DNA of 64,000 nt from Eledone cirrhosa (Eukaryota): contig OZ024740.1 of NCBI GenBank assembly GCA_964016885.1, positions 190,154,001 through 190,218,000 of the forward strand, given 5' to 3'. The notes beneath the pieces are model-generated. The model worked only from the letters and a program-made list of their open reading frames with translations, was not told the DNA's origin and did no database searches. A program made the position numbers and the translations under genes. This document shows positions 1 through 45,772 of this stretch, piece by piece (position 1 is the first letter of the stretch; every line of letters starts with the position of its first letter).

Positions 1-2651
1 GTAACAGACATATCAATTAGCAGGCATACCCTCCTTTGAAAGTCCTTCAATATTATATCAGGTCTATTTGCATCTATTTTTCGGTCTGTTTGGATGCTAA
101 AGTTCCACAAGATTGAGATGTGATATTTTTCAAGTATGGGAGGTGGTGGATGCTCCCACCAATTCTTTTGATGGGGCAGGTCAAAATGCTTACACATTAT
201 CCAATGTATGTATTGTGCAGCTCTGTCATGCCTGTTTAGGTATTCGGTTGGACCTATAGGACTGCACATTGAAATTATATGGTCAATGGTCTCTGGTTGT
301 TTTTTGCATACACGGCATAATGGGCTGCACCCATTTTTTATTATGTTGGCTTGGTAATTTTTTGTTGGCAGACACTGATCTTGTGCGGATATAATCAGTC
401 CTTCAGTCTCCGATTTCAGTCCAGAGGATGCCAACCACTGATGGGTTAATGTTTTGTCAACATCAGGATTGTTAGCTCGCTCTGGGTATTTTCCATACAG
501 AGGCTTTTCTTGCCATTTCTTAGCCAGTTTCTGTAGCAGTTCTTTCTTTGCAGTTACTTTTACCTGCTTTGCTTTTTCTGTGTTTTCCATTTCAGCAGTA
601 AATGGGACTTCTGAAATTTGTAGTCCATTACTGTATCTTTGTGCATCTTTTGTAATGGAATATGATCTTTTGGTGCTTTCGTGTTTCAAAACGAGTTTGA
701 TCATCCAATCATGTGATTCCCTTAGATATGTGGATAATCCAATTGTTGCAGTTTTCAACGCAATGTCTAACTGGATTAACCCACGTCCTCCTTCTTTCCT
801 AGGGAGATATATTCTATCTATGTCTGCCTTAGGGTGATGCATTCTGTGCATGGTTAAGAATTTTCGGATTTTTGTATCGAGCCTACGGATCTCTGTGCTT
901 GACCAGTTGATGACATTGTAACTGTAGGTTACTACTGGTATGGCAAGCGTGTTTATGGCATCGATCCTATTCCTTACATTCAATTCCGTTCTTAAGATAG
1001 TTCTGACTCTGCGGTAACATTCCTTCCTTTTCCTTTCCCTCATTGTCGAGTGCTTGATTCCGTCTCCTTCACAAACACCTAGATATTTGTAAGTTTGTTC
1101 TTGATCAAGCTCTCTTATCACGTTCCCCCGATCAAGATTAATGTCTGAACTCTTCAGCAGCTTTCCTCTGGTGAACGTTGCTTTGGCGCATTTATCCAGT
1201 CCAAACTCCATTTTAATGTCATCACTGAACTGCTTCACAGTGGATAATAGCCCTTGCAATTGTTCATCATTTTTTGCGAATAGTTTCAGGTCATCCATGT
1301 AGAACAGGTGATTAATGGTTTTGTCATAGACTCTATATCCATGTTTTGTTTCATTGAGAATTTTACTTAATGGTATAAGTGCGATGCAGAATAAAAGCGG
1401 TGATAAAGAGTCACCCTGAAAAATTCCACAATTAATGTTAACTTCTCCAGCTTCCAGTGATTTTGTTTCACTATTCAAAAGGAGTGTCGTTCTCCATGTC
1501 CTCATACTGAATGACAAAAACCTCCTGACAACGGGGGATATTTTGAAAATCTCTAAACATTTTTCAATCCAACTGTGTGGCAAACTATCAAATGCTTTTT
1601 TATAATCTATCCAAGCAATCGATAGATTTTTGTGTCTATTATGACAATCTTCCAGTATCATTTTGTTAACCAGAAGCTGATCCTTACAGCCATATGAGCC
1701 TCGTTTACACCATTTCTGCTCAATGGGAAATAGGTAAATTGTTATCAGGTGGTCATATGTGTATTCAGTTAGGACTGATGTTAAAATTTTATACATTGTG
1801 GTCAAGCAGGTTATCGGTCTGTAATTTTGGGGATTGTTTGTCTCATCATTCTTCGGTAGCAGGAATGTAATGCCGTTAACTAGCCATGATGGTATCTTTT
1901 CTGGCTCCTTAACTATTTCATTGTAAAGTTGGGCTAACAGCTCATGAGACTCGGTGAAGGCATTTATCCAAAAGTTTTGTATTTTGTCTTTTCCTGGGGA
2001 TTTCCATTTGCTGGTTTTTCTTAGAGCCAAGCGCAGCTGTTCAACTGTTATATTTTCCCATGTTTGTTCTTCAAGGTGAGCTGTTTCTTTCATTTGTCTT
2101 TCTATCCATGGGGCATGTATGTTATGAACTTTTTCTTCGTCCAGATCTTTTCCCATAATTCTTGCACTTCCTCCTTGGGTGGTATTGATTTAGCAGTTAT
2201 TGTTGACTTACCAATTTTTCTGTAGAAGTTTATTTGGTTGTTTTTGAACATATTATTGTCCTTATAGAATCTAGATCGTTTTTCAAAGCGCCTTATACGA
2301 GCAGCTTTGGCCGACACTTTTTGCTTGATTGTTTCTATCAGCATGTCTATGTCACATGTTGATCTTATACTGTACTTTTTTTTCAATTTTCTAAGTTTAG
2401 TTTGTTTAACATGTTCACCTACTTTATAGTTTGTTAAAATTTCTATGTCAGATCGGAGAAGGTTTATTTGGCGATTGATGTTATCTTGCCAAGTAGATTT
2501 CTTGTGGGAATTCCTTTGTTTTTTCATCTTCACTCCACATAAGTGAGTGGTGACTTTAGCCGATGCATAATAGAGATGATTTAAGTCAGTAATATTTATT
2601 TTGTTTGTGATGATAATGTTTTTGAGAATTATGTTAGTCTTGTGTATTATC

Positions 2652-2655
<4 letters not shown>
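1..2655 (-). mobile_element. R4/Dong-like RLE non-LTR retrotransposon, family A, copy 1 (5'-truncated, runs off the left edge, disrupted ORF)
   Basis: Minus strand encodes RT motifs ([25 protein letters not shown]), the CCHC knuckle CRVCKKQPETIDHIISMC, RHD and NRPD. Positions 1-1510 are near-identical to 13904-15410. Abuts (TTA)n at 2656. Confidence 0.9.

Positions 2656-2719
<64 letters not shown>
2656..2719. repeat. (TTA)n microsatellite joining Dong-A and the Tx1 5' end
   Basis: Direct sequence ttattatta... Confidence 0.95.
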
Positions 2720-4590
2720 GGCGACCTACGTAAGAAATCGTATTATCGTGAGCTCCGCAAAGGTTTGTTGTATTCAGTTGTTTCAAATTGCAGGTTATGG
2801 AAAGTTTTTGTTGTTAAGTATTTATAAGTTCACATATATTGCTTTCTGAAAAGGACACTCAAAAAGATTGGGGTCTTGAGCCCAAAATTTAAACTTTTAT
2901 AATTATCAAACAAAAAATTGATTTGGAAATATCATGGAGGACTCACAGCCACAACAATCTGACAGCCTTCCTCACAAACTAACACCTCACAACAACACCA
3001 CCATTGTAAATATTACTACGTTTGAGAACACTAAAAATATAAGCAGTAGCAATAATTTAAATTTGTCTCATGCTAACATGTATTTCCCGCCAATAACTGC
3101 AGGTGTTAAATTACCAATAACTGCAGGTGTTAAACCGCCACCCCCACCACCAGAAACAACAGAAACAAAATAAAAAAATAAATTATTATCTCGTGACATC
3201 GAAATGGATTCACCCAGAATCGACTCTACCACACCGAACACAACTGACGCCACCACCACCACAACTGAAAATAAAAATATCAATAACAAAAATAACAATA
3301 ACAACAACAGCAACAACAACAATGTGATTAACAACAAAAACATCAACACCAACGCAAATGTGTTGTTTGCTACAGCAGCCAAGAAATGCGAAACAATCGA
3401 GGTAATTCAGGAGTAATTAAATGAAGCCAAGAGAATGGTAAGGAAAGATGGGTACATGGTCAGTCTCCCACCTCCCCCACCCCACGCCCCGCACCTAATA
3501 AAATGGAGCGTCGACGCCTATGCACCGTGTCTTATCGGACGATTAACACAAAATCGCGCCGAGTGGAACGGGCATCCGAGTCCCAAATCAAAAATGCTTT
3601 GGGAATTGTTTGGGCGAAAAAAAACCTCATTAGACGTGGGCAGAAATATGGAACCGTGGACGTGTTCTTTGGAACACCACTAGAGGCCAGTGAGCACGCC
3701 ATGGCCCCATTATGTAGCGATGACTTTACACTCGTCCCAAGCTATTGTGGCCAGAGACTCGTGAAGATCAGTGTGACCCACGTTCCATCGGCAATCGAAA
3801 TTCCCTGGCTAATGGCTGCCGTCATTGCCGGCATCGAATCCAACATCTAAATAATTGAAATATCAAAAGAAAAGCAGGAGAACTGGTCCGGATCTGGGAT
3901 GGAGCTCCTGATCCAAGCGGACTAAAAACACCTTGAGGAAATCCCAGAGGTAAAAGACCACACTGACGGCAGCCACCTCACCGTAATCGTCGATGTTAGA
4001 AGGCATAGGTGTGTCGTTTGTGGTGAAGGAACCCACCTAAAGACTTTCTGCCCTCAGGCTAAAAAAAGATGAGGCCACCTCTCTTACCCACACCAGTGAC
4101 TCAACCATCAACACCACCAGCAGCAGAAATGGCAGCAACAACTGTAGCAACAACAACAGAAGCAACTGTAGCAGCAACAACCCCAGCAACAGTAGCAAAA
4201 CCAACACCACCACCACCCACCACACCAGAACACCAACACCTGTGGAGGATTTTCATATCGCCGACCTATCGCGACTGGAGACATATTGTGACGACTATGA
4301 GTGGGAAACTGTATCAGGAAAAAAGAAAAAAAAAGAAATAGAAGCCGAAAAAGAAAAAAATCATTTTCCTACCCCCTCCAAAATCAAAATACAGAGGGAA
4401 ACAAATAAACTATTAAACAAAAATGTTAAGACAGCTATGCCACTATCCACACCAGCATCACCAACATTAACCCGAACACCACCATCACCAACACCACAAA
4501 AGTCACCAAAAGGCGAAACTGAAACAAACGCAAACAAAACAAAACGACCAAAACGACACCCAGTACACAGCATTAAATTCGAACAACAAA

Positions 4591-4772
4591 CGGTAGATTG
4601 GCAGTATCGGTGGAGGGTCGGACGCCATGCTTTCCAGCATAGTTACGTCCCTTTACGATCTGAGTTCAAATCCCGCCGAGGTTGACTTTGCCTTTCATCC
4701 TTACGGGGTCGATAAAATAAAGTACCAGTTATTCACTGGGTAATTGCTGGCCTTGTGCCTAAAGTAGAAACA
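4591..4772 (+). mobile_element. SINE inserted in Tx1 copy 1, with about 20-bp target-site duplication
   Basis: B-box-like GAGTTCAAATCC and body GACTTTGCCTTTCATCCTTACGGGGTCGATAAAATAAAGTACCAGT. Flanked by attaaatt(c/t)gaacaacaaac on both sides. The empty site is seen in Tx1 copy 2 at about 21788. Confidence 0.85.
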
Positions 4773-5089
4773 ATTAAATTTGAACAACAAACAATTATTA
4801 CACTACATCTAACACAACACCAGCATCACAGAAAAAGACTACACAACAACCCAAAAGTTCACACCTCCTCCACACATACAAATCACTCACATCACACAGA
4901 AAACGTACACGACACTAAAACAAAAATTCCTCAAAGACATCGGAGACTTCTGACAAACACTCTCCAGTAGGATTTATAAGGACATCCTTCCTGAGGAGGC
5001 CACAGGTAGTGAAAAGGATGGAGAAACCATCCTTCCTCTACGAGAATTAAGGTAAGTAGTCTTTCCCATCTTTTCCACTCCATTTCAAC

Positions 5090-8000
5090 ATGACCTCACT
5101 CAGAATAGGCAGCATAAATGCGCGTGACTTGGGGTCATCATGAAAGCAAGGCCACCTGCTCAACGACCTCAGGTCACTAAACATAAATGTAGTGGCCATC
5201 AGCGAGACCAGAATCTCCGAAGCACGGGCCTTCGAACTGATCTTCCGCGGCTGTGATGTGTACGCATCTCCCAGCCGTGCTGCATCGGGGGGAGGAGTTG
5301 CTGTGCTTTTTCGGAGAGGTTTGGATCTCGCCATACGGGCCATCTTCCTGGACCCAGAATGTAAGTTGGTGAGGCTGGACGTGATCAGCGGAGACGGGCA
5401 AGATTTCAGGCTAGTGGCAGTCTATCCCGCAACAGGAGCAGGGCGGCCTGATTTCTTCCGGCGTCTGGAGACCTTACTTGGTACATCCCGCTCTTTAGTG
5501 TCAGTGGGCGATCGGAACGGGATCTTAGATGCACGCTGGGATAGTTTGGGATTAGCGGATAGAGGAGGAGGGTTCAAGAGCCTCACTAACCTGCTCAGGT
5601 GTTTTGAACTCTCTGAAAGGTACCGATTAGATTTCCTGAATGTGCCAATGTGGACTTGGACAAACCGTATCGGGTCATCCAGATCATATCTAGATAGAGT
5701 ATGTTGTAGGGAAATAGATAGGTGTAGCATAGGCTGTCCACAATCCAAGATAGTCAGCTACATGGACCACAAATTGGTGATCTGTGTGCTTGACTTAGAT
5801 AGGCGTCATAGACAAGGACCCGGCTAATGGAAACTAAACGCGTCCTTACCATCGCGCAAGGCCTACAGAGACTGGATTAGCGAACTAGTTAAGCGGGCTT
5901 TGACGGGGGCCATCGTCAACAACAGGTGGTGGTTTTCTCTGAAAAGAGCGATTAGAATAGAAATCATTAGGTTTAGTAGGGCTTTAGGTATAGAGAAAAA
6001 TAAAGCAGACGGAAAACTTTTATAGAATTAGACGAGGCGCTTAGCGAAGGCTTCGCGACCGACGTACTTGCGGCGAAATAGGCCCTTGACCAATTCTTCA
6101 ATGCAAAGCCCGAAGGCTTCGTTGTCAGAGCTAGGGTGCGTGTTAACAGACACGAGGGGATGAAAGACGTTCAATGGGACTGAGTGTCGGTGGCGCGTCC
6201 TGGCAAGTCACGATATAGTCTTTGGTGGACCACGACGGGCACATGCTACTCGATGTCTGAAGCTTTTCAGCGCACTTCGCTCCGCTGTTTAGCAAAAGCG
6301 GCAGGCCGGATCGAGGGACGGACTTTAGTGTCTACCACGACGGACTGCCACGGCTCTCGGCCACTGGGGCAGAATGTTGCGAAAAGCCGATAACAGCCGC
6401 TGTAGTACGGGAGGCAATGACTGGCTGCAGAAGGGGTAAATCGCCTGGTTTGGAAGTCTGCCCTATGAACTTTACGTACAGAAGCCAGACTTGTTCGGAG
6501 ACCTCTTGGCGGATGTGTACTGCAACTGGAAACAGAAAGAATTCGCAGCTCTGGTGAGCCGTGAAGCTGTGGAGCTGCTGAGAAAGGATCCGAACAAGGG
6601 GGATACCATAGATAATTTCAGGCCCATAAATCTGCTAAACACAGAGTTCAAGATTTCGGCCAAGGTGCTAGCAAAGAGGTTGGCGCTTGTTGTTGGTGGT
6701 CTAGTGGGAGTGCCGCAGACATGCACCATTTCCGACAGATCCATCCACGATAACCTCCACCTCATGCGATACATCGTGGGGAGGGTAGATAGGGAACGTG
6801 GCACGGGTGGGTCTTGGTCAATTTAGATCAGTCGAAAGCTTTCGATAGGTTCGACCATCGTTACCTAGCGGCTGTGCTGAGAACGGTTGGCTTTGGGCCC
6901 GTCTTCAGAGATTAGATCGCTGCCATGCACAGCGACATCTGCTCTGTGGTGAGAGTGAACGTTCACCTCTCGGAACCGTTCAACAGTATCCGCTCGGTCC
7001 GCCAAGATGTCCTCTCTTTTCCCTCTTGTACGTATTTACTCTCCAGCCATTACTGCACAACTGGAGACGTTGAGGGTGGCCCCGCGCGAACTAGGATGCG
7101 GAAGATCCGTGCCAGCATATGCGGACGATGTCACCCTAGTGGTGTCGAACACCAAACACATCGAGGCGATCGGCACTACCCTATGAGAATACGAAGCGGT
7201 GACAGGAGCAATGATCAACCTGGAAAGGTCAGTGAGCCTGCAGCTCGACACCTGGAGAGGCAGGTCCATGCCGTCCAACAGCGTCGTCGGGCGTACCGGT
7301 TCAGTTGCTAAGGGTCTGGTTCTGTCCGGACCTCCAGACAGACAAAAACTGGGATGCGGTGACGATCAGGGTGGGTTCTCTCACCCAGAAATGGGCGGAG
7401 AGGAAGCTATCCCTGAAAGGTCGAATAGGAGGTGGCTAACGCGTACATCGCGTCCGTCATCTACTACCGCCTGACCGTCGTACCTCGTCCTAGGCCTCTC
7501 CTGACTGCGCTGGAACGTTTGCTCTTTCGCTTTTTGTGGAAGGGACGCGCTCCGATGGTCAGGCAGTCCATCTGCTGTCAACACCCGTTACGTGGAGGCC
7601 TGGGCAGCCCGTGGCTGATGATGCGCAGACACGCTCTCAGGCTACGACATCTCCACCTCTTCCTCGACGGTGATCAGGTGTGATCGCCGTTTGCTAGACG
7701 TGTCTTTCCCCAGCTTGTCTCCTTGACGGAGCTGCAGTCATGGGTCAAGCGAAGACGAGAGGGAGCGCTTGGAGACTAAAATGTCTTCAGGCGCTCACAG
7801 CCCTCGACCAATCGGGCAATGGAAGGTGGAAACTCCACCATGGCGTTCTATAGAGGATTAGTGGAGGGGAAGTGCGACGACGTACTTGGGGAATCTCTAG
7901 GCGTCGACGAAAATCAACTAGCCAATGTCTTCGGAAGAACTTTCGCGCCGCGCCCTATCGACAACTTCCAGAAATACCTGGCCTGGCTGTGCTACAGAGG

Positions 8001-8447
8001 AGCGTTGCCAGTTCGGGATTAATTCTACAGACATGGAGGTGCCGCAAGCCGAGCATGTCCGAGATGCGCACAGGGCGAAGAAACCGTCCTGCAGGCACTC
8101 GTCCAGTGTCCGAGCATTGCTGACTTGTGGGTTTATGGCCAACACCTGCTGTCGCGTGTAAGACGGATCCAGCTATCTGCTGAGTCCATCGTGAGGATTG
8201 CCCACCCTCTTCCTTTAGCCGGGAAGGGCAGGCAATTTTTATCTGTCTGGTGGCCATGACGAAAGAGATAGTATGGTGGACACGTTTGAAAGGGCTGAAG
8301 ACGAGCACTTACCTCTTCGATGATGCCCTGATTAACCTTTTCAAATTTCATTTGAAAAGGAAAATCAGGGTAGAGAGGGAAGTGCTCTCTTCCAAGCATT
8401 TCATTGAAAGACAGGTGAGAGAGGCCAGAATGGCCCGAGTAGATTAA
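5090..8447 (+). pseudogene. Tx1 ORF2 (APE endonuclease plus reverse transcriptase), broken by stops and frameshifts
   Basis: ORF fragments 5192-5827, 6491-6826, 7432-7683, 7819-8022 and 8250-8447 are collinear L1/Tx1 ORF2 pieces. Confidence 0.85.
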
Positions 8448-8719
8448 ATTAAAGGTGGAAACATGCGAGAGAGCACTTGCCCTGGGGGTCAGGGTCACTG
8501 TGGCTTTTTAATGGGCATTCTTCACGAATGTCCCTTGGAAGTCTGCCCAGTATTGGGGAATTTTTCAGTGTTTTTTTTTTTTTGTTACATCCTCTGTGGT
8601 TGCTTTTTACACGCAGCAATGCCCATTTGTAACATACTGCATTGTCCTGTGCTGTCCTTAATGTCTACTTTATGTAAACCCTTGCGGTTAATAAAGAAAG
8701 CATTATTATTATTATTATT

Positions 8720-11700
8720 GTTCTTTGAGTCTCAGTCATTGATGTTAGTTAACTAGAAAGTTTGTTGAAATGAATATCAAGCCACTACCTGCAGCCTCAG
8801 ATATTCAGGACGTCGCGGAGGGTTCTTGCTGTTCCCAGCGAGCATGCCTTTTGAAGTGTTCCAAAATGTGGGGCGGGCCCAATTTTCTTTAACCATCCCT
8901 TGAAACATTTTGAGATAGTACCTATTGCGCCTATGACAATCGGGACCACTTTGACTTCATGGCAGTTCCAAATCCTTTTTACCTCCCACTTTAAGTCCTG
9001 GTACCGGTTAATTTTCTCCCTCTCCTTCTATTGCACTCTCGTCTCGAATGAGCAGGCCACATACACAATCAGGCCCGATCTTTTTTCCTTGTCCAAAACC
9101 AACAGGTTAGGTCTATTGTGTTCCAGTTTCTTGTCCGTCTGTATCCTAAAATCCCACAGCACCTTCACCTGATCGTTTTCTATCACCGACTCTGGCTTAT
9201 GCTCATACCACTTCTCAGCATGTGGTAAATTGTTTACTTTGAATAGGTGCCAGTGGATCACCCTGCCCATCACATCATGTCTCCAGCCTTTATAGTGAGT
9301 CTGGGCTAGGTGTTTACACTCGGATACAATGTGAGCCACAGACACATCTCTCTCTCCAGATATCCTGCACAGTAGGCTAGCCTCCTCCTTGTAAATATTG
9401 TGTTTCAACCACTTCGTTTTGAGGGCCTGCTCTTGCGCAGCCATTAGCATTCATTCTGTAGCCTTTTTAATGTCTCCTCTTTTCAACCAGTTCCATGTCT
9501 GAGGATCTCTGAATTCAGTTTTCTCAAAGAAGGTACTACGAAGGGATTTTTCATGAAGGCTGCTCTTTCTCTTTGTTATTTTTTTACTCCACGGACATCC
9601 CCTGGTATATTGTCCTCTCCTTCAGAACAATTCTGAGCATTGGCTCCTTACTATCAGTCACGTATTTGTGTAGGTTGTTTTTCTCCATATGAACACAGTC
9701 CTCTATTCTGATAAGACCTCTTCCACCTTCAGATCTCCTTAAGTAGAGTCTATCGACATCACTCCTCTTGTGGAACATGTTGTAGATAGTCAATAGCTTC
9801 CTAGTCTTCCAATCCATTTCTTTTTGTTCAGCAAAATTCCATCTCAGAATTCCCGCACTGTACCTAATAATATACACAGTTCGGGAATTTACTACACTTA
9901 TGGCATTCCTACTGTTCAGGTGTGACTTTAATTCGCTCCTTACTCTCCGTATATATTCAGATATTATCAAGTCCTTCATTTTTTTGTCCTTGATGTCATC
10001 TGCCCCCATAACACCCAAATGCTTGTATTCTTATTCAATGTCAATTTCCTTTATCATCTCATCTGTTGGTAACTGGATTCCATGGCTCCTGCTCAATTTA
10101 CCCTTCTTCATCACAAGGACTCCACACTTACTTATACTAAATTGCATACATATATCATTGCTGAAAATACGGACAGTGTCAACAAGCACAGCCAACTCAC
10201 TCTTCCCGAAGAGCTTAAGATCGTCCATGAAGAGGAGGTGATTGATGGTAAGGTCTCCCTTTCCCAACTTGTATCCTGCTCTCACTTTTCGCAGTATAAG
10301 GGTCAGGGGCATCAGGGCAAGGACAAACAACAGAGGGGACAGGCTATCTCCCTGGAAGATACCTCTCTTGATCTTCACGCCTCCCAAGGATTCTCCAGCT
10401 CATGTTAACTCTGTTTTCCAGGACTTCATACTTTTCCCCAACAACTGTATGATGTTATCTGCCACCTTGAAGATATCTAGGCTTTTATTGATCCAAGTAT
10501 GAGGAACCATGTCAAATGCCTTTTTGTAGTCTATCCATCCCATTGCAAGACCAGTGTGTCTCCTCTTGTTTGTGTGGAGGTGATGGGAGATTTCCTCAGA
10601 CACAATGCTTGTCAACACTTTCCACATTACGGACAGAGATGTGATAGGTCTAAAGTTGGTAACATTATTACCCTTGATTCGGTATTTTATTACCAGAACT
10701 GTTGTACCTTTTGTCAACCACTCTGGTACCTCACCTGATATCAAGCAGTCATTGAACATGGGTGTCAGTTTCAGGTGGAGGGAAGTTATATTTTTAATCC
10801 AATACCCTTGCACACTATCTGGCCCTGGTGATTTCCAGTTAGTTAGTATATTGGCCTGCCACTTAAGAGTTTCAACTGTGATACTCAAATCAGTTTGTTG
10901 GTGTGTCTGTTCACTAATCTCCTTTTGTACTGTCTCAATCCATACTGACTGGTCATTATGTTTAACATCCTGCTCCCATATTCTTCTCCAGAATGTCTTA
11001 GTTTGTTCCGCCTCAGGGATCAAGTTGTTGCCTCTTTCTTTCCGTTCAAGCTGTACAAACAACATCTACTGGTCGTGGTCAAACATGCGGTTGTATCTAT
11101 ACTGACTGACTCTGCTCTCGAATCGCCTAATTTTTTAACTCTTTGCTACAATGCGTTGCTTCCGTTCCTCTATGATAATATTTAGCTTTTTCCTCCTAGT
11201 TTTGTACTTTATTTCCAGTCTATTTTTAGTGTCTATGTTTTTTAGTGTCCCATTCAGTAGAGCCTCAAGCTTTCCAATGTCATTTCTCATTTCCCTGATT
11301 TGACCATTCAGTCGTTTCTTCCACCAATGTTCTGATCTTTCTTGTTTGTTGTTTCCTCTCGCTTTTATGCCAAGTAATTTCCTCACCGCATTTGCTGTTG
11401 CTTTGAGGATATTATTGCACTTGTGAAGGCTCCTCGCCTCAAAGTATGGCATGACTTTGTTTACCTTAGCTGTTGTTTCTTTAACTCTTTCCTGTCTACA
11501 AATCTTAGGTTCATAGGATTCCCACTATCATTGTTCAATTCATCTAGCACTAAGTTTAGGTTATCAACCAAATATTGTCCTAGCCCCTCTCCATCTCCAA
11601 GCTAATCTCTCTGTTCAGTTCCTCCAGTTCCAGCTCGCTTATCCACCCATTAGTTCTTATTACACGTGCCTGCCTGGCCAATGTTTATTCATCTAATTTA

Positions 11701-12077
11701 AATAGACCAATCTCTTTCCAGATGTTATGCATCCGTTTCCTATAGCCTTTCGCCTTGGGGTTACTCTTCAGGTAACATTGCATAACAGTTCTATCCAATT
11801 CTTTCGTCCAGTTGGTTCTGGTCCCTTTCCTTCTTCTCCCTCCGACACCAGCAGTATTTATTTGACAGCCAGGTCCCTGCTGCTGAGCCAAGGATCACAT
11901 GCTGGATGAGAGTCTGTCACATGATATCCCAGTCTCCACTTCACCGTTATTCGAACTGTTTAGGTTCGACATCTAAACACTCTTATCGATGATTGGTGAA
12001 TGTATGGTTACATAACCAACGGTGATTTCATCACCCCCGGTGATGTTAGTGTGGCACTATCATGCTGTAGACGAACA
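8720..12077 (-). mobile_element. R4/Dong-like RLE retrotransposon, family B, copy 1 (both ends present, internal deletions, decayed)
   Basis: N-terminal Myb-like RTNWTKELDRTVMQCY...[21 protein letters not shown] / [13 protein letters not shown]-terminal RHD/NRP motifs. 5' end ...ctgtagacgaac is shared with 19097. Confidence 0.9.
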
Positions 12078-12095
12078 TAAATTAATTATTACAAT

Positions 12096-12209
12096 ATGAG
12101 TTCAAATCACGCCGAGATTTACTTTGCTTTTCATCCTTACGGGGTCGATAAAATAAAGTACCAGTAATTCACTGGATAATTGCTGGCCGTGTGCCTAAAG
12201 TAGAAAGAA
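12096..12209 (+). mobile_element. SINE fragment (same family as 4591) ending in (TTA)n
   Basis: tgagttcaaatcacgccgag...ggggtcgataaaataaagtaccagt...cctaaagtagaaag. Confidence 0.85.
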
Positions 12210-12235
12210 TTATTATTATTATTATTATTGTTGTT

Positions 12236-13476: not shown

Positions 13477-13512
<36 letters not shown>

Positions 13513-13513
<1 letters not shown>

Positions 13514-15410: not shown

Positions 15411-15447
15411 TATTATTATTCTGTCTTCATATTATTATTATTATTAA

Positions 15448-15486
<39 letters not shown>

Positions 15487-15488
<2 letters not shown>

Positions 15489-18400
15489 CTTGAATCTCAG
15501 TCATTGATGTTAGTTAACTGGAAAGTCCGTTGGAATGAATATGAAGCCACTGCCTGCAGCCTCAGATATTCAGGACGTATCGGAGGGTTCTTGCTGTTCC
15601 CAGCAAGCATGCCTTTTGAAGCGTTCCAAAAAGCTCGAAGGGGCCGATTTTCTTTAACCATCCCTGGAAACTTTTGGAGATAGTCCCCAGTGCGCCTATG
15701 ACAATCGGGATCACTTTGACTTCATGGCAGTTCCAAATCCTTTTTACCTCCCACTTTAAGTCCTGGTATCGGTTAATTTTCTCCCTCTCCTTCTCTTGCA
15801 CTCTCGTGTCGAATGGGCAGGCCACATCCACAATCAGACACGATCTTTTTTCTTTGTCCACAACCACCAGGTCAGGTCTATTGTGTTCCAGTTTCTTGTC
15901 CGTCTGTATCCTAAAATCCCACAGCACCTTCACCTGATCGTTCTCCATCACCGCTTCTGGCTTATGCTCATACCACTTCTCAGAATGTGGTAAATTGTTT
16001 ACTATGCACAGGTGCCAGTGGATCACCCTGCCCATCACATCATGTTACCAGCCCTTATAGTGGGTCTGGGCTAGGTGTTTACACTCGGATACAATGTGAG
16101 CCACAGTCTCCTCTCTCTCTCTCCACAGATCCTGCACAGTGGGCTAGCCTCCTCCTTGTAAATATGGTCTTTCAACCACTTCGTTTTGAGGGCCAGCTCC
16201 TGTGCAGCCATTAACATTCCTTCTGTAGCCTTTTTAAGGTCTCCTCTTCTCAACCAGTTCCATGTCTGTGGATCTCTAAATTCAGTTTTCTCAAAGAAGG
16301 TACTATGAAGGGATTTTTCCTGGAGGCTGCTCTTTCTCCTTGATGTTATTTCCTCCTTGGACATCCCCTGGTCTATTGTCCCCTCCGTCAGTACAGTTCT
16401 GAGCATTGGCTCCTTACTATCAGTCACGTATTTGTGTAGGTTGTTTTTCTCCATCTGAACACAGTCCTCTATGCTGATAAGACCTCTTCCACATTCAGAT
16501 CTCCTTAGGTAGAGTCTATCGACATCACTCCTGTTTTGGAACATGTTGTAGATAGTCAATAGCTTCCTAGTCTTCCTATCCATTTATTTTTGTTCAGCAA
16601 CATTCCATCTCAGAATTCCTGCACTGTACCTAATAATAGACACAGCTCGGGAATTTACTGCGCTTATGGCACTTCTGCTGTTCAGATGTGACTTCAATAC
16701 GCTCCCTACTCTCCGAATGTATTCAGTTCTTAACAATTCCTTCATTTTTTGTTCTTTATGCCATCAGCCTCCAGAACGCACAAATATGTGTATCCTTCCT
16801 CGGAGTCAATTTCCTTTATCATCTCACCTGTTGGTGTCTGGATTCCGTTACTTCTGCTCAACCTACCCCTCCTCATCACAATAACTCCACACTTACTAAT
16901 ACCAAACTGCATACATATATCACTGCTGAAAATACGGACAGTGTCAACAAGCACAGCCAACTCACTTTTCCCGAAGAGCTTAAGATCGTCCATGAAGAGG
17001 AGATGATTGATGGTAAGCCCTCCCTTTCCCAACCTGTATCCTGCTCCCACTTTTCGCAGTACACTGGTCAGGGGCATCAGCGCAAGGACAAACAACAGAG
17101 GGGACAGACTATCTCCCTGGAAGATACCTCTCTTGATCTTCACGCTTCCCAAGGATTCTCCAGTTGATGTCAACTATGTATCCCAGGACCTCATACTCTT
17201 GCCCAACAACTGTCTGATGTTATCTGCCACCTTGAAGATCTCCAGGCTTTTGGTGATCCAAGAATGAGGCACCATGTCAAATGCCTTTCTGTAGTCTATC
17301 AATCCCATGGCAAGATCAGTGTGTCTCCTCTTGCAATTCCCCATTACCATCTTATCAATAAGTAACTGGTCCTTTGTACCACGTGACTTCTTTCGGCATC
17401 CTTTCTGTTCGTCCGGTAACAAGTTGTTTGTGTGGAGGTGATGGTAGATTTCCTCAGACACAATGCTCGTCAACAGTTTCCACATTATGGACAGACATGT
17501 GATAGGTCTATAGTTGGTAACATCATTACCCTTGATTCGGTCTTTCATTATCAGAACTGTGGTACCTTTTGTCAACCACTCTGGTACCTCACCTGACATC
17601 AAGCAGTCATTGAACATGGTTGTCAGTTTCGGGTGGAGGGATGTTATATTTTTAGTCCAATACCCCTGCACAACATCTGAGCCTGGTGATTTCCAGCTGG
17701 CTAGTTTTTTTGGCCTGCCCCTTAAGAGTTTCAACTGTGATACTCAAATCAGTTTGTTGGTGTGCCTGCTCACAGATCTCCCTCTGTACTGTCTCAATCC
17801 ACACTGCCTGGTCATCATGTATAACATCATGCTCCCATATTCCTCTCCAGAATGTCTTAGTTTGTTCCGCCTCAGGGATCAAGTCGTTGCCTCTTTCTTT
17901 CCCCTCAAGCTGTCCAAACAGCATCTTCTGGTTGTTGTCGAACATGCGGTTCTGTTTATACTGACTGACTCTGTTCTCGTATCGCCTGATTTTTGCACTC
18001 TTTGCTACAATGCGTTGCTTCAGTTCCTCTATGATAATATTTAGCTTTTTCCTCCTAGTTTTGTATTTTATTTCCAGTCTATTTTTAGTGTCTATGTTTT
18101 TTAGTGTCCCATTCAGTAGTGACTCAAGCTTTCCAATGTCATTTCTCATTTCCCTGATTTGACCACTTAGTCGTTTCTTCCACCAAGGCTCTGCTCTTTC
18201 TTGTCTGTTGTTTCCTCTCGCTTTTATACCAAGTAGTTTCCTCACCGTATTTGCTGTTGCTTTGAGGATATTGTTGCACTGGTGAAGGCACCTCGTCTCA
18301 AGGTATGGGATGACTTTATTTACCTTAGCTGTTGTTTCTTTTAACTTTTTCCTGTCTACAAATCTTAGGTTCATAGGTCTCCACTATCATTATTCAATTC

Positions 18401-19097
18401 ATCTACCACTAAATTTAGGATGTCAACCGAACCTTGTCCTAGCCCGTCAGCATTCATCTCCTCAGTGGCCGTATCTCTGTTCCAGGTATTATTTATCTCA
18501 GTATTCAGATCATTGTCTGCTTCGGGTGGTTCCTCCGTTCTCTCGACCTCTTCACATTCATTTCCCACTGGCTCGTTTGCCTGGCATACTCCACCCTCCA
18601 TCTCCAAGCTAATCTCTCTGCTCAGTTCCTCCAGTTCCAGCTCGCTTATCCACCCATTAGTTCTTACTACCCGAGCCTGCCCGGCCAAATTTTGTTCATC
18701 TAATTTAAATAGACCAATCTCGTTCCAGATGTTATGCATCCGTCTCCTATAGCCCCTCTCATTGGGGTTACTTTGCATAACAGTTCTATTCAATTATTTC
18801 GTCCAGTTGGTTCTGGTCCCTTTCCTTCTTCTTCTTCCTCCAACACCAGCAGTATTTGGTTGACAGCCAGGTCCCTGTTGCTGAGCCAGGGAGCCCCTGT
18901 TGGGTGAGAGTCTATCACATGACGTTCTAGTCTCCATTTCGCCGTTATTCGAACTGTTTAGCTTCGATATTTAAACACTCTTATCGAGGATTGGCGAACG
19001 TATGGTTACATAACCATCTGTGGATTCACCGTCTCCGGTGGTTGCGCCGCTCCACTTGCCTCTTGTGTGGCATTATCACCACGCTGTAGACGAACAC
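15487..19097 (-). mobile_element. R4/Dong-like family B, copy 3 (apparently full length, about 3.6 kb, frameshifted)
   Basis: Collinear ORF pieces 18371-18793, 17652-18374, 17174-17734, 16742-17173, 16071-16583 and 15562-16038 cover the Myb-like N-terminus, RT, CCHC and PD..D RLE. Confidence 0.92.
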
Positions 19098-19779
19098 AAA
19101 TAAACAAACAAACAAACAGGCAGAAAAAACCACCAAAATGAATAAGCATAAGTTTCATTGTAATGTAGTGTTCGAATGTCTGACTTAGTTTTTCCCTTCT
19201 CTTCTCTGTCCGTCCGCTTGTTTCTCTCTTCATTCTTATTTTCTTTACGTTTTTTTTGTTTTTGTTTTTCTCTGTTTGTTTTTTGTTGTTGTTGTTGCTG
19301 TGCTGCTTTGGTTTTGATTTTTGTTTTTTCTTTTGAGTCTATCTATATATTTTGATGCCTTCCTCTTTTTTAGTAGGAATTCTATAATGAGGTGGCAGTG
19401 CTGTGCTAGCAGCAACTAGCAGGAAGCAATGGGAGAGAATAGCGGCGGTAGCGATACTGAGGCAGTGATGGTGGTGATGTCGATACTGAGGCAGTGGTGG
19501 TGGTGATGTGATCGTATTACTGTAGTGATGGTGTTGTAGCGGTGGTAGCAATGAAGGAGTGGTAGCGGCGGTGATGGGATAGTGGTGTATCTAGTGGTGT
19601 ATCTAGTTTCTGGTGTTGGTGAGATTGGTGTTGTTTGGCTGTTCTATATAGTGTAGACAGAGGAGGGGGGGGGGTTCTTCTTCTTCTTCCATTTATAGCC
19701 ATTTTCTTTTTTGAATATACAATGTACAATACAAAGTTGAATATTTGAATAATTGAGCCTTATAACAATATATTTTGGG

Positions 19780-22700
19780 TCCGAATGTTTTGGGGGCTCA
19801 AGCCGGATGCTTTACGTAACATTTGTACTAAGAGTTGTTATTTCACAAATGAGTTCAAATCCCGCCGAGGTTGACTTTGCCTTTCATTTTTACGGGGTCG
19901 ATAAAATAAAGTACCAGTAATGCACAGGGTAATTGCTGGCCTTGTGCCAAAAGTAGAAACAGTTATTTCACAAATGATTTAAATATGTTAAAATGTTTTA
20001 TTGTTAACTCTATATAAGTGCACATACATTGATTTCTGAAAAGGACACTCAAAAATACTGGGGCCTTGAGCCCAAAATTTAAACTTTTTATAATTATCAA
20101 AGAAAACTTTTCTTTGAAAAAATAATGGATGACTCAGAGTCACTCCTGCCTCACAATCTAACACCTCACACCGACACCACCATTGTAAATATTGCTACGT
20201 TTGCCAACACTAGAAATTTAGCAGTAGCAATATTTTTAATTTGTCTCAGGCAGACGTTCATTTCCCGCCATTACCAATGACTGCAGGTGTTAAAGCCGCC
20301 ACTACCACGACCACCACCGCCACAACTACTGCCCCCACCACCACCACAGCGACAACAGAAACAAAAGAAAAAAATAAATTAACTCGTGATATCGAAATGA
20401 ATTCACCCAAAATGAACTCTTCCACACCGAACACCACTGACGCCACCACCACCACAACTGAAACTAAAATTAACAAAAGCAAAAATAACGATAACAACAA
20501 CACCAAAATTGAAATTAAGAAAACTACCCTGAGTTTTGCCAGAGTAGCAAAAACGTGCGAAGCGATCCAGTTAACTCAGGAGGAATTAGAAGAAGCCAAA
20601 GGAATGGCAAAGAAAGATAGGTACAGGGTGAGCCCCCCCCCCCCCCCCCACACACACCTAATAAAATGGAGCAACGTCGCCTATGCACCGTGTCTTATCG
20701 GACAATTAACATAAAATCGCGCCGAGTGGAACGGGCATCCGAGTCCCAAATCAAAAAAGCTTTGGGACACGTGTGGGCAAAAAAAACCCCACATCAGACG
20801 TGGGCAGAAGTATGGAACCGTGGACGTGTTCTTTGAAACACGACAGAAAGCCAGAGAACACTCCAATGCCCCATTAAGAAGTGACGACTTCACACTCACC
20901 CCAAGTTATTGTGGCCAGACACTTGTGAAGATCAGGGTGACACACGTTCCACCGGCCATCGAAATTCCCTGGCTAATGGCTGCCGTCCTCACCGGCATCG
21001 AGGCCAACACCAAGATAATTGAAATAGCGAAAGAAAAGCAGGAGTACTGGTACGGATCTGGGATGGAGCTCCTGATCCAAGCGGACCATAAAAGCATTGA
21101 GGAGATCCCAGAGGTAATACACCTCACTGACGGAAGCCACCTCACCGTAATCGACGAGGGCAGACGACCTAGGTGTGTCGTTTGTAGTGAAGGAACCCAC
21201 CTAAGGGTTTCTGCCCTCAGGCTAAAAGGTTGAGGCCACTTCTCTTACCCACCCCAGTCACTCAACCATCAATACCACCAGCAGCAGAAATGGCAGCAAC
21301 AACTGTAGCAACAACAACAGAAGCAACTGTAACTGCAACAACCCCAGCAACAGTAGCAAAACCAACACCACCAACACCCAACGCGCCATAACTAAAAGCA
21401 GCGCCTACACCATCCAGCACGCCACAAGCAAAACCAACGCCTGTGCAGTATTTTCCACTCCCCGGCTTATCGCAACTGGAGACAGATTGTGACGACGTGG
21501 AGTGGAAAACGGTATCAGGAAAAAGAAAAAAAGAAACCAAAAAATAAAATATTATCTTCCCTCCCCCTCCAAAAACAAAATACATACGAAGACAAATAAA
21601 TCATCAGATATGCCACCATCCATACCAGCATCACCAACCCCATCACCACAAATACGAACACCATCACCATCATTAACCCCAACACCACCATCATCAACAC
21701 CATAAAAGTCACCAAAAAAGCGTAAAAGAAACAAACACAACAAACGCAAACAAAACAAAACCACCAAAACGATACACACTACACAGCATTAAATTTGAAC
21801 AACCAATTATTACACTACATGCAACACAACACCAGCATCACAGAAAAAGACTACACAACAACCCAAAAGTTCACACCTCCTCCACACATACAAATCACTC
21901 GCATCACACAGAAAACGTACACGACACTAAAACAAAAATTCCCCAATGACATCGGAGACTTCCGACAAACACTCCCCAGGAGGATTTATAGGGACATCCT
22001 TTCAGAGAAGGCGACAAGCAGTGAAAAGGATGGATAAACCATCCTTCCTCTACGAGAAGTAAGGTAAGTGGTCTTTCCCATCTGTCCACTCCATTTCAAC
22101 ATGACCTCACTCAGAATAGGCAGCATAAATACGTGTGGCTTGGGGTCGTCATGGATACAGTGCCACCTGCTCAACGACCTCAGGTCACTAAACATAGATG
22201 TAGTGGACATCAGCGAGACCAGAATCTCCGAAGCACGGGCCTTCGCATCGATCTTCGGCGGCTACAATGTGTACGCATCTTCCAGCCGTCCGGGATCGGG
22301 TGGAGGATTTGCTGTGCTTTTTCGGAGAGGTTTGGATCTTGCCATACGGGCCATCTTCCTGGACTCAGAAGGTAAGTTGGTGGTGCTGGACGTGACCAGC
22401 GAAGACGGGCAAGCTTTCAGGCTAGTGGCCGTCTATGCCCTGACAGGAGCAGGGTGGCCTGATTTCTTCCGGCGTCTGGAGACCTTTCTTGGAACGTCCC
22501 GCTCTTTAGTGTTAGTGGGCGACTGGAACGGGATCTTAGATGCACGCTCGCACTGTGTGGGAATGGTGGATAGGGGAGTAGGGTGCAATAGTCTCACCAA
22601 CCTGCTCAGGCATTTTGAACTGTATGACAGGTACCGATTGGATTTCCCGAATGTGCCAATGTGGACTTGGACAAATCGCATAGAGTCATCCAGATCTATC

Positions 22701-25661
22701 TAGATAGAGTAATTTGTACGGAAATAGATAGGTGTAGCACAGGCTGTCCACAATTCAAGATAGTCAGCTACACAGACCACAAATTCGTGATCTGTGTGCT
22801 TGACTTAGATAGGCTTCATAGACGAGGATCCGGCCACTGGAATCTAAACGCGTCCTTACAAGCGCGCAAGTCCTACAGAGACCGGATTAGCGAACTAGTT
22901 AAGCGGGCGTTGACGGGGGCCGTCGTCAACAACAAGTGGTGGTTTGCTCTGAAAAGAGCAATTAGAATAGAGTCCATTAGGTTTAGTAAGGCTTTAGCAA
23001 TGGAGAAAAATAGAGCAGAGAGAGAATTAGTTAGCTAATTAGACGAGGCGCTTAGCAAAGGCATCGCGTGCGACGTACTTGCGGCGAAATTGGCCCTTGA
23101 CCAATTCTTCAATGCAAAGCAAAAGGCTGCGTTGTCAGAGCTAGGGTGCGTGCTCTCAGAAACGAGGGGAGCAAAGCTGTTCAATGGGCCCGAGTGGCGG
23201 AGGCGCGTCGTGGCAACAAATACACGATCCGGTCTTTGGTGGACCACGACGGGCGCATGCAACTCGATCCCGGGCAAATGTGTGAAGCTTTTCAGCGATA
23301 CTTCGATCAGCTGCTGGGGGGCAGCGGCGGGCCGGATCGAGGGATGGACATTAGTGTCTCCCTCGACGGACTGCCGCGGCTCTCCGCCACTGAGGCGGAG
23401 TGTTGCGAAAAGCCGATAACAGCCGCTGAAGTAAGGGAGGCAATGACTGGCTGCACAAGGGGTAAATCGCCTTGTTTGGATGGTCTGCCCTATGAACTTT
23501 ACGTACAAATGCCAGACTTGTGCGGAGGCCTCTTGGCGGACGTCTACGGCAACTGGCAACAGAACGGAGAATACCCAGCTCTGTGAGCAGAGGAGCGGTG
23601 GCGCTGCTGAGAAAGGATCCGAACAAGGGGGATAACATAGATAATTTCAGGCCCATAACTCTGCTAAACACAGAGTTCAAGATTTTGGCCAAGGTGCTAG
23701 CAAAGATGTTGGCGCTTGTCGTTGGTGGTCTAGTGGGAGTGCCGCAGACATGCACCATTCCCGACAGATCCATCCACGACAACCTCCACCTCATGCGATA
23801 CATCGTAGAAAGGGTAGCTACGTAACCTGGCACGGGTGGGTCTTTGATCAATTTAAATCAGTCGAAAGCATTCGATAGGGTCGACCATCGTTACCAAGCG
23901 GCAGTCCTGAGGGCGACTGGCTTTGGGCCCGTCTTCAGAGGCTGGATCGCTGCGATGCACAGCGACATCTGCTCTGTAGTGAGAGTGAACGGTCACCTTT
24001 CGGAACCGTTCAACATCATGCGTCCGGTCCGCCAAGGATGTCCTCTCTCGTACTGCCTCTCGAACCATTACTGCACAAACTGGAGACGTTGAGGGGGGTC
24101 CCGCGCGAAATAGGATGCGGAAGATCCGTGTCAGCATATTCGGACGATGTCACCGTAGTGGTGTCGAACGCCAAACACATCGAGGCAATCGGCACTACAC
24201 TAAGAGAATACGAAGCGGTGACAGGAGCAATGATCAACCAGGAAAAGTCAGTGGGCCTGCAGCTCGGCACCTGGAGAGACAGGTCCATGCCGCCCAACAG
24301 CGTCGTCGGGCTCTGGACAGACGGACCGGTTAAATTGCTAGGGGTCTGGTTCGGTCCAGACCTCCAGACGGACAAACATGGGACGAGTTGACGAGCAGCG
24401 TGGCTTCTCTCAACCAGAAATGGGCCGAGAGGAAGCTATCCCTGAAAGGTCGAGCGGAGGTGGCTAACGCGTACATCGCGTCCGTCATCTACTACCGCCT
24501 GACCGTCGTACCTTGTCCTAAGCCCCGCCTGACTGCGCTCCGATGGTCAGGCGGTCCATCTGCTGTCAACACCCGCTACGTGGAGCGCTGGGCTTGCCGG
24601 GGCTGGTGATGCGCAGACACACGCTCAGGCTACGACATCTCCATCTCTTCCTCGACGGTGATTAGGTGTGGTCGCCGTTTGCTAGACACGTCTTTCCCCA
24701 GCTCGTCTCGTTGACGGAGCTGCAGTCCTGGGTCAAGCGAAGACCGAGATAGAGCGCTTGGAGACTGGAATGTCTTCAGGCGCTCAAAGCCCTCGACCAA
24801 TCGGTCAATGTGATCGGCGGAAACTCCACCTTGGCGTTCTAAAGAGGATTAGTGGAAGGGAAGAGCCACGACGTACTTGGGGAAACTCTAGGCATCGACG
24901 AAAATCAACAAACCAATGTCTTCGGAAGGACTTTCGGGCCGGGGCCTATGGACAACTTCCAGAAATCCATGGCCTGGCAGTGCTACCGGGGAGCTTTGCC
25001 AGTTCGGGATAAACTCTACAGGCATGGAGGTGCCGTCAGCCGGGCATGTCCTAGATGCGCACAGGGCGACGAAACCGTCCTGCACGCACTCGTCCAGTGT
25101 CCGAGCATTGCTGACTTCTGGGTTTATGTCGAACACCTGCGGTCACGTGTAGGACGGATCCAGCTATCAGCTGAGTCCATCGTGAGGATTGCGCCGCCCC
25201 CTTCCTTTAGCCGAGAAGGGCAGGCAGCTTTTATCTGTCTGGTGGACATGGCGAAATAGATAGTATGGTGGGCACGTTTGAAAGGGCTGAAGACGAGCAC
25301 TTAGCTCTTCGGTGATGCCCTGATTAACTTTTTCAAATTTCATTTGAAAGATGGGTGAGAGAAGCAATTATGGCCCGAATAAATGGGCGTTCTCTTAGTA
25401 TGTGTCTGTAAATTAAATGTGGAAAACTGGGAGAGGGCACTTGCCTTGTTGGTCAGGTTCACTGTGGTCTTTTAATGGGCTTTCTCCACAAATGTCCCCC
25501 CGAAGTCTCCCCCCTATTGGGGAATTTTTCATTTTTATTTTTTGTTACATCCTCTGTTTTTGTTTTTTACACGCAGAAATGCCCATTTGTACCGTCCTGT
25601 ATTGTCCTGCACTGTCCTTAATGTCTACTTTATGTAAACTCTTGTGGTTAATAAAGAAATC
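19780..25661 (+). mobile_element. Tx1/L1-clade retrotransposon, copy 2 (near full length, decayed; 5' boundary approximate)
   Basis: Collinear with copy 1 from about 19990: ORF1 pieces 20241-21233, APE 22068-22703, RT 23146-24391, C-terminus 24852-25259. 3' end TTAATAAAGAAA is followed by (TTA)n. Confidence 0.9.
19849..19960 (+). mobile_element. 5'-truncated SINE with about 16-bp target-site duplication
   Basis: SINE body flanked by gttatttcacaaatga at 19836 and 19962. Confidence 0.85.
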
Positions 25662-25685
25662 ATTATTATTATTATTATTGTTGTT

Positions 25686-27716
25686 ATTCCTTGAATCTCA
25701 GTCATTGATGTTGGTTAACTGGAAAGTCCGTTGGATTGAATATCAAGCCACTACCTGCAGCCTCAGATATTCAGGACGTATCGGAGGGTTCTTGCTGTTC
25801 CAAGCAAGCATGCCTTTTGAAGCGTTCCAAAAAGCGTGAAGGGGCCGATTTTCTTTAACCATCCCTGGAAACTTTTGGAGATAGTCCCCAGTGCGCCTAT
25901 GACAATCGGGATCACTTTGACTTCATGGCAGTTCCAAATCCTTTTCACCTCCCACTTTAGGTCCTGGTATCGGTTAAATTTCTCCCTCTCCTTCTCTTGC
26001 ACTCTCGTGTCGAACGGGCAGGGCACATCCACAATCAGGCACGATCTTTTTTCTTTGTCCACAACCACCAGGTCAGGTCTATTGTGTTCCAGTTTTTGTC
26101 CGTCTGTATCCTAAAATCCCACAGCACCTTCACCTGATTGTTCTCCATCACCGCCTCTGGCCTATGCTCATACCATTTCTCAGAATGTGGTAAATTGTTT
26201 ACTTTGCACAGGTGCCAGTGGATCACCCTGCCCATCACATCGTGTCTCCAGCCCTTATAGTGGGTCTGGGCTAGGTGTTTACACTCGGACACAATGTGAG
26301 CCACAGTCTCCTCTCTCTCTCCACAGATCCTGCACAGTGGGCTAGCCTCCTCCTTGTAGATATGGTGCTTCAACCACTTAGTTTTGAGGGCCTGCTCCTG
26401 CGCAGCCATTAGCATTCCTTCTGTAGCCTTTTTGAGGTCTACTCTTCTCAACCAGTTCCATGTCTGTGGATCTCTAAATTCAGTTTTCTCAAAGAAGGTA
26501 CTATGAAGGGATGTTCCCCTAAGGCTGCTCTTCCTCCTTGATGTTATTTCCTCCTTGGACATCCCCTGGCCTACTGTCCCCTCCTTCAGTACAGTTCTGA
26601 GCATTGGCTCCTTACTATAGGTCACGTATTTGTATAGGTTGTTTTTCTCCATCTGAACACAGTCCTCTATGCTGATAAGACCTCTTCCACCCTCAGATCT
26701 CCTTAGGTAGAGTCTATCGACATCACTCCTCTTGTGGAACATGTTGTAGATAGTCAATAGCTTCCTAGTCTTCCTATCCATTTCTTTTTGTTCAGCAACA
26801 TTCCATCTCAGAATTCCCGCACTGTACCTACTAATAGACACAGCTCGGGAATTTACTGCGCTTATGGCATTTCTGCTGTTCAGATGTGACTTCAATACGC
26901 TCCTTACTCTCCGAATGTATTCAGTTCTTAACAATTCCTTCATTTTTTTGTTCTTTATGCCATCAGCCTCCAGAACGCCCAAATACTTGTATCCTTCCTC
27001 AGAGTCAATTTCCTTTATCATCTCACCTGTAGGTATCTGGATCCCTTTACTTCTGCTCAACCTACCCTCTCTTCATCACAATGACTCCACATTTACCAAT
27101 ACCAAACTGCATACATATATCACTGCTGAAAATACGGACAGTGTCAACAAGCACATCCAACTCCTTCTCACTTTTCCCGAAGAGCTTAAGATCGTCCATG
27201 AAGAGGAGGTGATTGATGGTAAGCTCTCCCCTTCCCAACTTGTATCCTGCTCTCACTTTTCGCAGCATAATGGTCAAGGGCATCAGGGCAAGGACAAACA
27301 ACAGAGGGGACAGGCTATCTCCCTGGAAGATACCTCTCTTGATCTTCACGCTTCCCAAGGATACTCCAGTTGATGTCAACTCTGTCTCCCAGGACCCCAT
27401 ACTCCTGCCTAGCAACTGTCTGATGTTATCTGCCACCCTGAAGATCTCCAGGCTTTTGGTGATCCAGGAATGAAGCACCATGTCAAATGCCTTTCTGTAG
27501 TCTATCCATCCCATGGCAAGATCAGTGTGTCTCCTCCTGCAATTCCCCATTACCATCTTATCAATAAGTAACTGGTCCTTTGTACCACGTGACTTCTTTC
27601 GGCATCCTTTCTGTTCGTCCGGTAACAAGTTGTTTGTGTGGAGGTGATGGTAGATTTCCTCAGACACAATGTTCGTCAACAGTTTCCACATTACGGACAG
27701 ACATGTGATAGGTCTA
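25686..27716 (-). mobile_element. R4/Dong-like family B, copy 4 (5'-truncated)
   Basis: ORFs 27062-27691, 26035-27060 and 25763-26068. (TTA)n at 25662-25685 and 27717-27740. Confidence 0.92.
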
Positions 27717-27747
27717 TTTATTATTATTATTATTATTATTAAGACCC

Positions 27748-43019: not shown

Positions 43020-43144
<125 letters not shown>

Positions 43145-44582: not shown

Positions 44583-44664
<82 letters not shown>

Positions 44665-45738: not shown

Positions 45739-45772
<34 letters not shown>

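Follow-up and report, generated by a model that had tools for sequence, protein, structure and literature searches.

Dong-like and Tx1-like LINEs in opposite orientations along (TTA)n tracts of the octopod Eledone cirrhosa

Overview

The 64-kb stretch of Eledone cirrhosa DNA analyzed in this study (contig OZ024740.1 of assembly GCA_964016885.1, positions 190,154,001 to 190,218,000; hereafter, the window) begins with an array of eight long interspersed nuclear elements (LINEs) joined by (TTA)n tracts. Two of the families, A and B, are LINEs of the restriction-like endonuclease (RLE) type, and the third, T, is of the apurinic/apyrimidinic endonuclease (APE) type. The array probably grew by repeated, independent target-primed insertions of both LINE classes into (TTA)n/(TAA)n, and convergent evolution most likely brought the APE and RLE lineages to a single microsatellite, which they use from opposite strands. 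With less confidence, we favor a reading in which an octopod Tx1-like lineage with a (TTA)n-specific APE shares the repeat with two Dong-like RLE families on the opposite strand; the tails of these elements would regenerate each other's target and form self-feeding mixed arrays of tens of kilobases, seeded also by the tails of short interspersed nuclear elements (SINEs).

Structure of the array

The six RLE-type copies (A1, B1, B2, A2, B3, and B4) lie on the minus strand, and the two APE-type copies of the array (T1 and T2) lie on the plus strand, as does the solo copy T3 found further downstream. Along the plus strand, the order is A1(-), (TTA)21, T1(+), (TTA)5, B1(-), SINE, (TTA)6, B2(-), (TTA)11, A2(-), imperfect (TTA)n, B3(-), segment X, T2(+), (TTA)5, B4(-), (TTA)8, and an old SINE fragment. 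A preliminary description made from the sequence had placed eight LINE copies and the (TTA)n tracts at these positions, with six RLE copies on the minus strand and two Tx1-like copies on the plus strand, and the tract scan and the domain and motif matches agree with it. It had also called the array nested, which does not apply to the LINEs: they stand in tandem, no LINE is inserted in another, and the only nested elements are SINEs. TTA at almost every junction, as it had stated, is found at six of the seven LINE-LINE junctions, the exception being B3|T2 (19091-19978), where there is none. Neither T3 nor the (TTA)n tails of SINEs as a source of tracts had been cited in it.

All 10 runs of at least four TTA units in the window are located at LINE ends, nine of them at a distance of 3 nt or less and the remaining one 21 nt from a LINE end within the same imperfect tract; the association is therefore not due to chance. 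The sole (TAA)4 on the plus strand of the window is 3.2 kb away from the nearest element end. A tract beside a 3' end may be the tail of that element and is hence less informative on targeting. Three tracts touch 5' ends only, i.e., those starting at 2655 (heads of A1 and T1), 27718 (truncated head of B4), and 53683 (head of T3), and it is these tail-independent tracts that support targeting; within the array, the first two are the only ones that are not attributable to the 3' tail of a neighbor.

A1 (1-2654, minus strand) is a family A LINE that is 5' truncated within its open reading frame (ORF), and its 3' end lies before the window start; it retains a 729-aa frame with an RVT_1 match (E = 3e-27) and CCHC and PD..D motifs, and it is 98.1% identical to A2. 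The tract between the 5' ends of A1 and T1 (2655-2719, perfect for 21 units at 2655-2717) cannot be a 3' tail. T1 (2720-8701, plus strand) is a decayed copy that retains its 5' end and has an Exo_endo_phos match (E = 1e-7), and it contains SINE S1 (4592-4776, plus strand), whose target duplication of approximately 20 bp is not in TTA. T1 and B1 meet tail to tail at a tract of five units (8702-8719, perfect at 8703-8717). B1 (8720-12087, minus strand), the oldest B copy, has its 5' end and two internal deletions, and the 5'-truncated SINE S2 (12089-12212, plus strand; 92% identical to S1) lies between this 5' end and the next tract, which consists of (TTA)6 (12210-12227) followed by TTG TTG (12210-12236 in total) and represents the tails of S2 and B2. 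B2 (12237-13477, minus strand), a young, 5'-truncated copy with private frameshifts, is separated at its 5' end from the 3' end of A2 by 11 units (13478-13512, perfect at 13479-13511). A2 (13513-15411, minus strand) is 5' truncated with an intact 3' end and has a short duplication at its 5' junction.

The imperfect tract between the 5' end of A2 and the 3' end of B3 (15412-15487, starting at approximately 15411) includes two perfect parts of 5 and 12 units (15432-15446 and 15450-15485). B3 (15488-19090, minus strand) is nearly full length, and its 5' end is not on TTA. Beyond segment X (19091-19836, minus strand), which is free of TTA, T2 (19806-25661, plus strand) has a diverged 5' end that is placed approximately, at 19806, is not on TTA, and harbors SINE S3 (19850-19965, plus strand) with a 16-bp target duplication. 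T2 and B4 are again tail to tail, at (TTA)5 (25663-25677) followed by TTG TTG (25662-25686 in total). The truncated 5' end of B4 (25687-27717, minus strand), another young B copy, abuts (TTA)8 (27718-27741), which has an element tail on neither side; the next feature is the old SINE fragment (27742-27859, plus strand; 69% identical to S1, E = 7e-11), whose 5' side adjoins this last tract. The solo T3 with its flanking tracts occupies 53683-56356 on the plus strand, and the copy itself (53718-56326) is preceded by (TTA)11 and followed by (TTA)10.

At the 5' junctions of A2 (15411-15450) and B2 (13474-13482), short microhomology to the tract and the variant TTA ATA TTA are present, and the A2 junction has a re-primed duplication of 10-11 nt. 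No long record across the whole array was seen in the read data, and the assembly is unverified on that basis.

Independent origin and relative ages of the copies

Positions 4773-10568 and 21788-27539 form a single alignment that crosses the T1|B1 and T2|B4 junctions at a flat 88-92% identity. Taken alone, this pattern fits duplication, and block duplication was therefore put to the test. The copies themselves are related otherwise: B4 is 98.6% identical to B2 and 95.8% identical to B3 but 90.5% identical to B1, and the B copies give the tree ((B2,B4),B3),B1, in which 23 sites unite B2 and B4 versus a single site for each alternative split. T2 is likewise nearer to the distant T3 (93.0%) than to T1 (90.0%), and among 2096 sites T1 has 131 private changes compared with 73 in T2 (p = 6e-5) and 64 in T3. 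The frameshifts in the B copies are all private, with none shared, and B1 has 79 private sites in approximately 1.2 kb. A1 and A2, which are 1.9% apart, have different truncation points, and T1 holds the internal SINE S1, which T2 lacks. The branch shared by B2 and B4 carries 13 synonymous and 8 replacement changes (neutral share of approximately 0.24; omega of approximately 0.19, p = 0.0002); this purifying selection indicates that the branch evolved in a working source element and not in a dead copy. The private branches of T are near neutral (omega of 0.72-0.98), and the majority frame of T is open for 671 codons.

That a T+B block was duplicated, in tandem or segmentally, to give most of the array, the competing account that the preliminary description had raised, is accordingly very improbable and largely refuted: block duplication is rejected by the different 5' truncation points, the private disabling mutations, and the purifying selection on the B2+B4 branch. 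Neither shared disabling mutations nor mutual nearest-neighbor copies, the marks of segmental duplication, were found among the array copies. The evidence thus supports independent repeated insertion as the origin of the array.

Pairwise divergence, which the preliminary description had proposed for ordering the insertions, places T1 and B1 as the oldest copies, followed by T2 and T3 and then B3, with A1, A2, B2, and B4 as the youngest. In B1 and T1, the private branches (omega of 0.6-0.7) include some evolution in the source elements, and these ages are therefore upper bounds. The young A1 inserted into the tract preceding the old T1, and the young B4 into the tract that follows the older T2.

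The RLE-type families A and B

Families A and B have one ORF with the reverse transcriptase (RT), a CCHC knuckle (CxxC..H..C), and an RPD..D..K nuclease motif in this order and no APE, and their protein identity by segment is 30-49%. Their sole solved relatives are R2 proteins (E = 1e-25 to 1e-19). All five visible 3' ends are on sense-strand (TAA)n. With regard to the 5' ends, 5'-truncated Dong copies had been described as abutting (TTA)n, which is clear for A1 and B4; the tracts at B2 and A2 may be the tails of their neighbors, the B1 end is degenerate, and B3 has no tract.

Outside the window, DNA was obtained for 20 relatives of A and B (19 of 63 candidate stretches and 1 of 155). These come from records titled prokaryotic or viral and are likely stray animal contigs; the Dong-like LINEs L001-L019 lie within contigs titled bacterial, probably animal DNA binned with microbes. 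At least three TAA units follow the element in 8 of the 16 relatives that have at least 300 nt downstream, and in none of the five that do not belong to the clade containing A and B. Four relatives have the repeat at the 5' side: L012 and L014, which are truncated inside the RT, abut (TAA)11 and (TAA)21, and L004 and L020 have (TAA)31 and (TAA)17 at full-length distance. Tandem copies linked by (TAA)n occur in L003/L008 and L009. The relatives are not all independent, as five loci are from one assembly and L003 and L008 overlap.

A and B fall within a clade of unnamed TAA-flanked relatives (SH-aLRT 91-94) in a quick tree that contains no named R4/Dong references. The targeting of TAA is described for Dong, DongAg, and the snail DongBg in the accessible text of PMC3812793, where Dong is grouped with APE elements, but it is placed in the R4 lineage in that of PMC3774820. 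The junctions in the window, the outside relatives, and the literature are all in line with the TAA targeting that had been ascribed to the two RLE families; judged from these flanks, the view that A and B insert in (TAA)n, like Dong, is supported. The stacking of Dong-like copies is ordinary, already known biology.

The accessible part of PMC3774820 also reports a hepatitis delta virus (HDV)-like ribozyme at the 5' end of Bombyx mori Dong and R4. A search of Rfam with positions 1-30000 of the window gave nothing at the gathering level and no match at E ≤ 1. The 5' ends of B (11880-12090 and 18880-19093, minus strand) share stems with three compensatory pairs in a two-sequence fold, in which the HDV core is not recognizable; the 5' end of A is absent.

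The APE-type family T

T has the two-ORF layout of the Tx1 clade: the domains of ORF2 are PF03372 (APE), PF00078 (RT), and a C-terminal PF13966 (zf-RVT), in this order, and the upstream region of approximately 2 kb contains a broken reading frame with no Pfam family. Among named proteins, one of Argonauta hians is the nearest (73% identity over the RT piece), which points to an octopod as the probable host. In a quick tree (unrooted, with no named references), T and the Argonauta protein form their own clade (SH-aLRT 100) outside the U2-associated clade, and T and the U2-associated, Keno-like loci share a common set of 35 rows (SH-aLRT 90). T likely belongs to Tx1.

The 3' ends of all three T copies are on (TTA)n, and so are the 5' ends of T1 and T3. 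The phase is the same in each case: T1 and T3 start at ..TTATT|GG, and T1 to T3 end at ..CA|TTA. No A or B copy is near the solo T3, in which the 5' 348 nt are joined to the RT region at 54065/54066 by an internal deletion of approximately 3.4 kb; T3 could represent a nonautonomous family or a one-off deletion. The earlier claim that an APE family reuses the same repeat is therefore partly supported, by two of the three 5' ends, with T2 as an exception and with no outside copy. Because tail-to-tail orientation is also expected if only Dong targets the tails of T, the claim depends on the tracts at the 5' ends of these two copies, T1 and T3.

A metagenome scan gave 282 loci related to T, of which 80 were kept, all of them distant (25-44% identity). 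U2 sequence was found in 6 of the 20 relatives that were scanned, in three of these at the 3' flank, as in Keno. Among Tx1-like loci, L021, L022, L023, and L029 have U2-like sequence upstream of the ORFs, and L023, L025, and L030 have U2 at the 3' flank. There is no U2 match in positions 1-30000 of the window, and the flanks of T are TTA; the U2 insertion of Keno is thus not seen here. Calling of tRNA genes in 12 of the kept loci gave none, searching with the APE piece revealed no relative of greater length (weak evidence), and an Atlas search returned zf-RVT clusters only. When the sequences of four runs were mapped to 2691-12130, with the repeat at 2691-2727 masked, T and B were high copy in run X6 and present in runs X1 and X9, and 32 reads of the raw-read run X12 were mapped; the loose ends and joints in these data belonged to the SINE and yielded no information on the flanks of the LINEs.

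Insertion mechanism and alternative explanations

In target-primed reverse transcription, nicking occurs on the strand to which the RNA tail is complementary, and that strand primes synthesis. The sense strand ends in (TAA)n in A and B and in (TTA)n in T, and on a shared tract the two classes would be forced into opposite orientations. The A and B RNAs, ending in (UAA)n, would prime on the TTA strand, and the T RNA, ending in (UUA)n, would prime on the TAA strand. Each insertion would leave the repeat on both sides together with a repeat tail and so provide a new target for either class. Recognition of the repeat by the T endonuclease, the strand nicked first, and the regeneration of the target are the inferred parts of this scheme.

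Several observations weigh against it, in addition to the flat alignment of the two T+B regions. The 5' end of B3 abuts an (AAAC)n-like stretch, that of B1 has at most two or three degenerate units and a SINE in the junction, and that of T2 lacks TTA, its loose alignment to T1 reaching approximately 19806 once the SINE is excluded. Only three T copies were seen, and none of the 80 distant T relatives has a TTA/TAA tract of at least five units, which leaves T without outside support. Among the eight relatives with 3' TAA, four are from one assembly, and L003 and L008 overlap. Empty LINE sites were not observed. Finally, segment X, if it is a relic of T, would break the orientation rule. It is a low-complexity segment in a head-to-head arrangement with T2. 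On the minus strand, its first ~120 nt show a weak likeness to the T 5' untranslated region; the local score against T3 is 46 compared with 28.4 ± 4.4 for shuffled sequences (0 of 200 shuffles), and over the same 160 nt the comparison with T1 or T2 is not significant. Since the TTA-free 890 bp at 19091-19978 interrupt the chain, the phrase "one microsatellite" in the preliminary description is too strong, and the right-hand pair (T2 and B4) may have grown on the tail of T2 itself.

The best-surviving alternative, which we consider possible but rather unlikely, is that targeting of the repeat is confined to the Dong-like families: T would at most prefer a short TTATT-like site or carry a terminal TTA, site duplication and slippage would have enlarged the tracts, and Dong copies would have homed to the tails of T and of SINEs. 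This would account for the T2 5' end without TTA, for the young B4 in the tail of the older T2, and for the young B2 and A2 beside the tail of S2; a (TTA)n consensus is seen at the loose 3' ends of the SINE in run X6, and tail-to-tail geometry suffices for the opposite orientation. On the other hand, the 5' ends of T1 and of the solo T3 are preceded by 21 and 11 units, respectively, in identical phase, T3 has no Dong neighbor, and a TTA preference or a terminal TTA in T is still required. A passive pile-up in a gene-poor region, in which the tracts are 3' tails only, or an assembly artifact is very improbable: the whole window is repeat rich and at least one 3' end adjoins four of the seven array tracts, but three tracts adjoin 5' ends only, the copies are 1.4-10% apart with private changes, and six copies alike with three opposite would be expected in ~0.4% of cases under random orientation (2/64 × 1/8).

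Comparison with known systems

Similar to Dong of B. mori, DongAg, DongBg, and the R4 clade, A and B have a single ORF with RT, CCHC, and a C-terminal PD..D..K motif and sense-strand (TAA)n at both ends. They differ in that two families with only 30-49% identity share an array and in that a canonical HDV-like ribozyme was not recognized at the B 5' end. T may insert in a microsatellite in the same way as the Tx1 APE families that PMC4494074 describes, i.e., Kibi in (TC)n, Koshi in (TTC)n, and crocodilian families in (TTCC)n/(TTTC)n; (TTA)n is not among the targets given in the accessible text of that article. The parallel arrival of Keno (Tx1, APE) and Utopia (RLE) at U2 small nuclear RNA genes, according to PMC4640811, is a precedent for APE and RLE lineages on one target; those elements have a common 3' flank within a gene, whereas the target here is a microsatellite on which the classes are opposed. 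SART and TRAS, two families that form arrays in (TTAGG)n in opposite orientations (PMC10088271, accessible text), are alike in opposing each other within one simple repeat, but both belong to the R1 clade, are of the APE type, and occupy telomeres, whereas the array presented here combines unrelated nucleases in an ordinary microsatellite. In Octopus vulgaris, Dong-R4 and L1-Tx1 have been recently active, with 1129 and 421 insertions (PMC13282606; activity also supported by the portions available of PMC8967140 and PMC10294476), and neither a target preference nor shared arrays appeared in the searched text and supplement of PMC13282606.

Each component thus has a precedent, and the putative TTA target of the Tx1-like T is the new part. 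The open literature yielded no description of a Tx1 family that targets TTA, and one may be listed already, for example, in Repbase; the combination of a TTA target of a Tx1-like element with a mixed opposite-strand array was likewise not found in the literature searched. If T is specific for TTA, the Tx1 repertoire gains a target. An unrelated pair of nucleases would then read one three-base repeat from opposite strands, offering a side-by-side test of how an APE gains specificity, and octopod retrotransposon hotspots would have a possible mechanism that requires neither selection nor low recombination.

SINEs and the remainder of the window

S1, S2, S3, and the old fragment belong to one SINE family, with further copies at 48440-48576 and 56792-56862 (six in total). 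This SINE may resemble published octopus SINEs, and by eye its head looks tRNA derived. In run X6, the (TTA)n consensus of its loose 3' ends was derived from 2010 contigs (agreement of 0.44), and many contigs of that run have head-to-tail SINE dimers. S1 is absent from a contig of run X1 that covers both of its flanks, and neither S1 nor S3 is inserted in TTA. This abundant SINE with its (TTA)n-like tail supplies additional tracts.

In the rest of the window, decayed frames at ~31000-32400 and 34000-37040 resemble, by eye, Penelope-type RT and GIY-YIG elements. Near-identical repeats (96-100%), both tandem and inverted, are located at 43042-44654 and 44793-47983, together with a 1.4-kb inverted pair at 80% identity.

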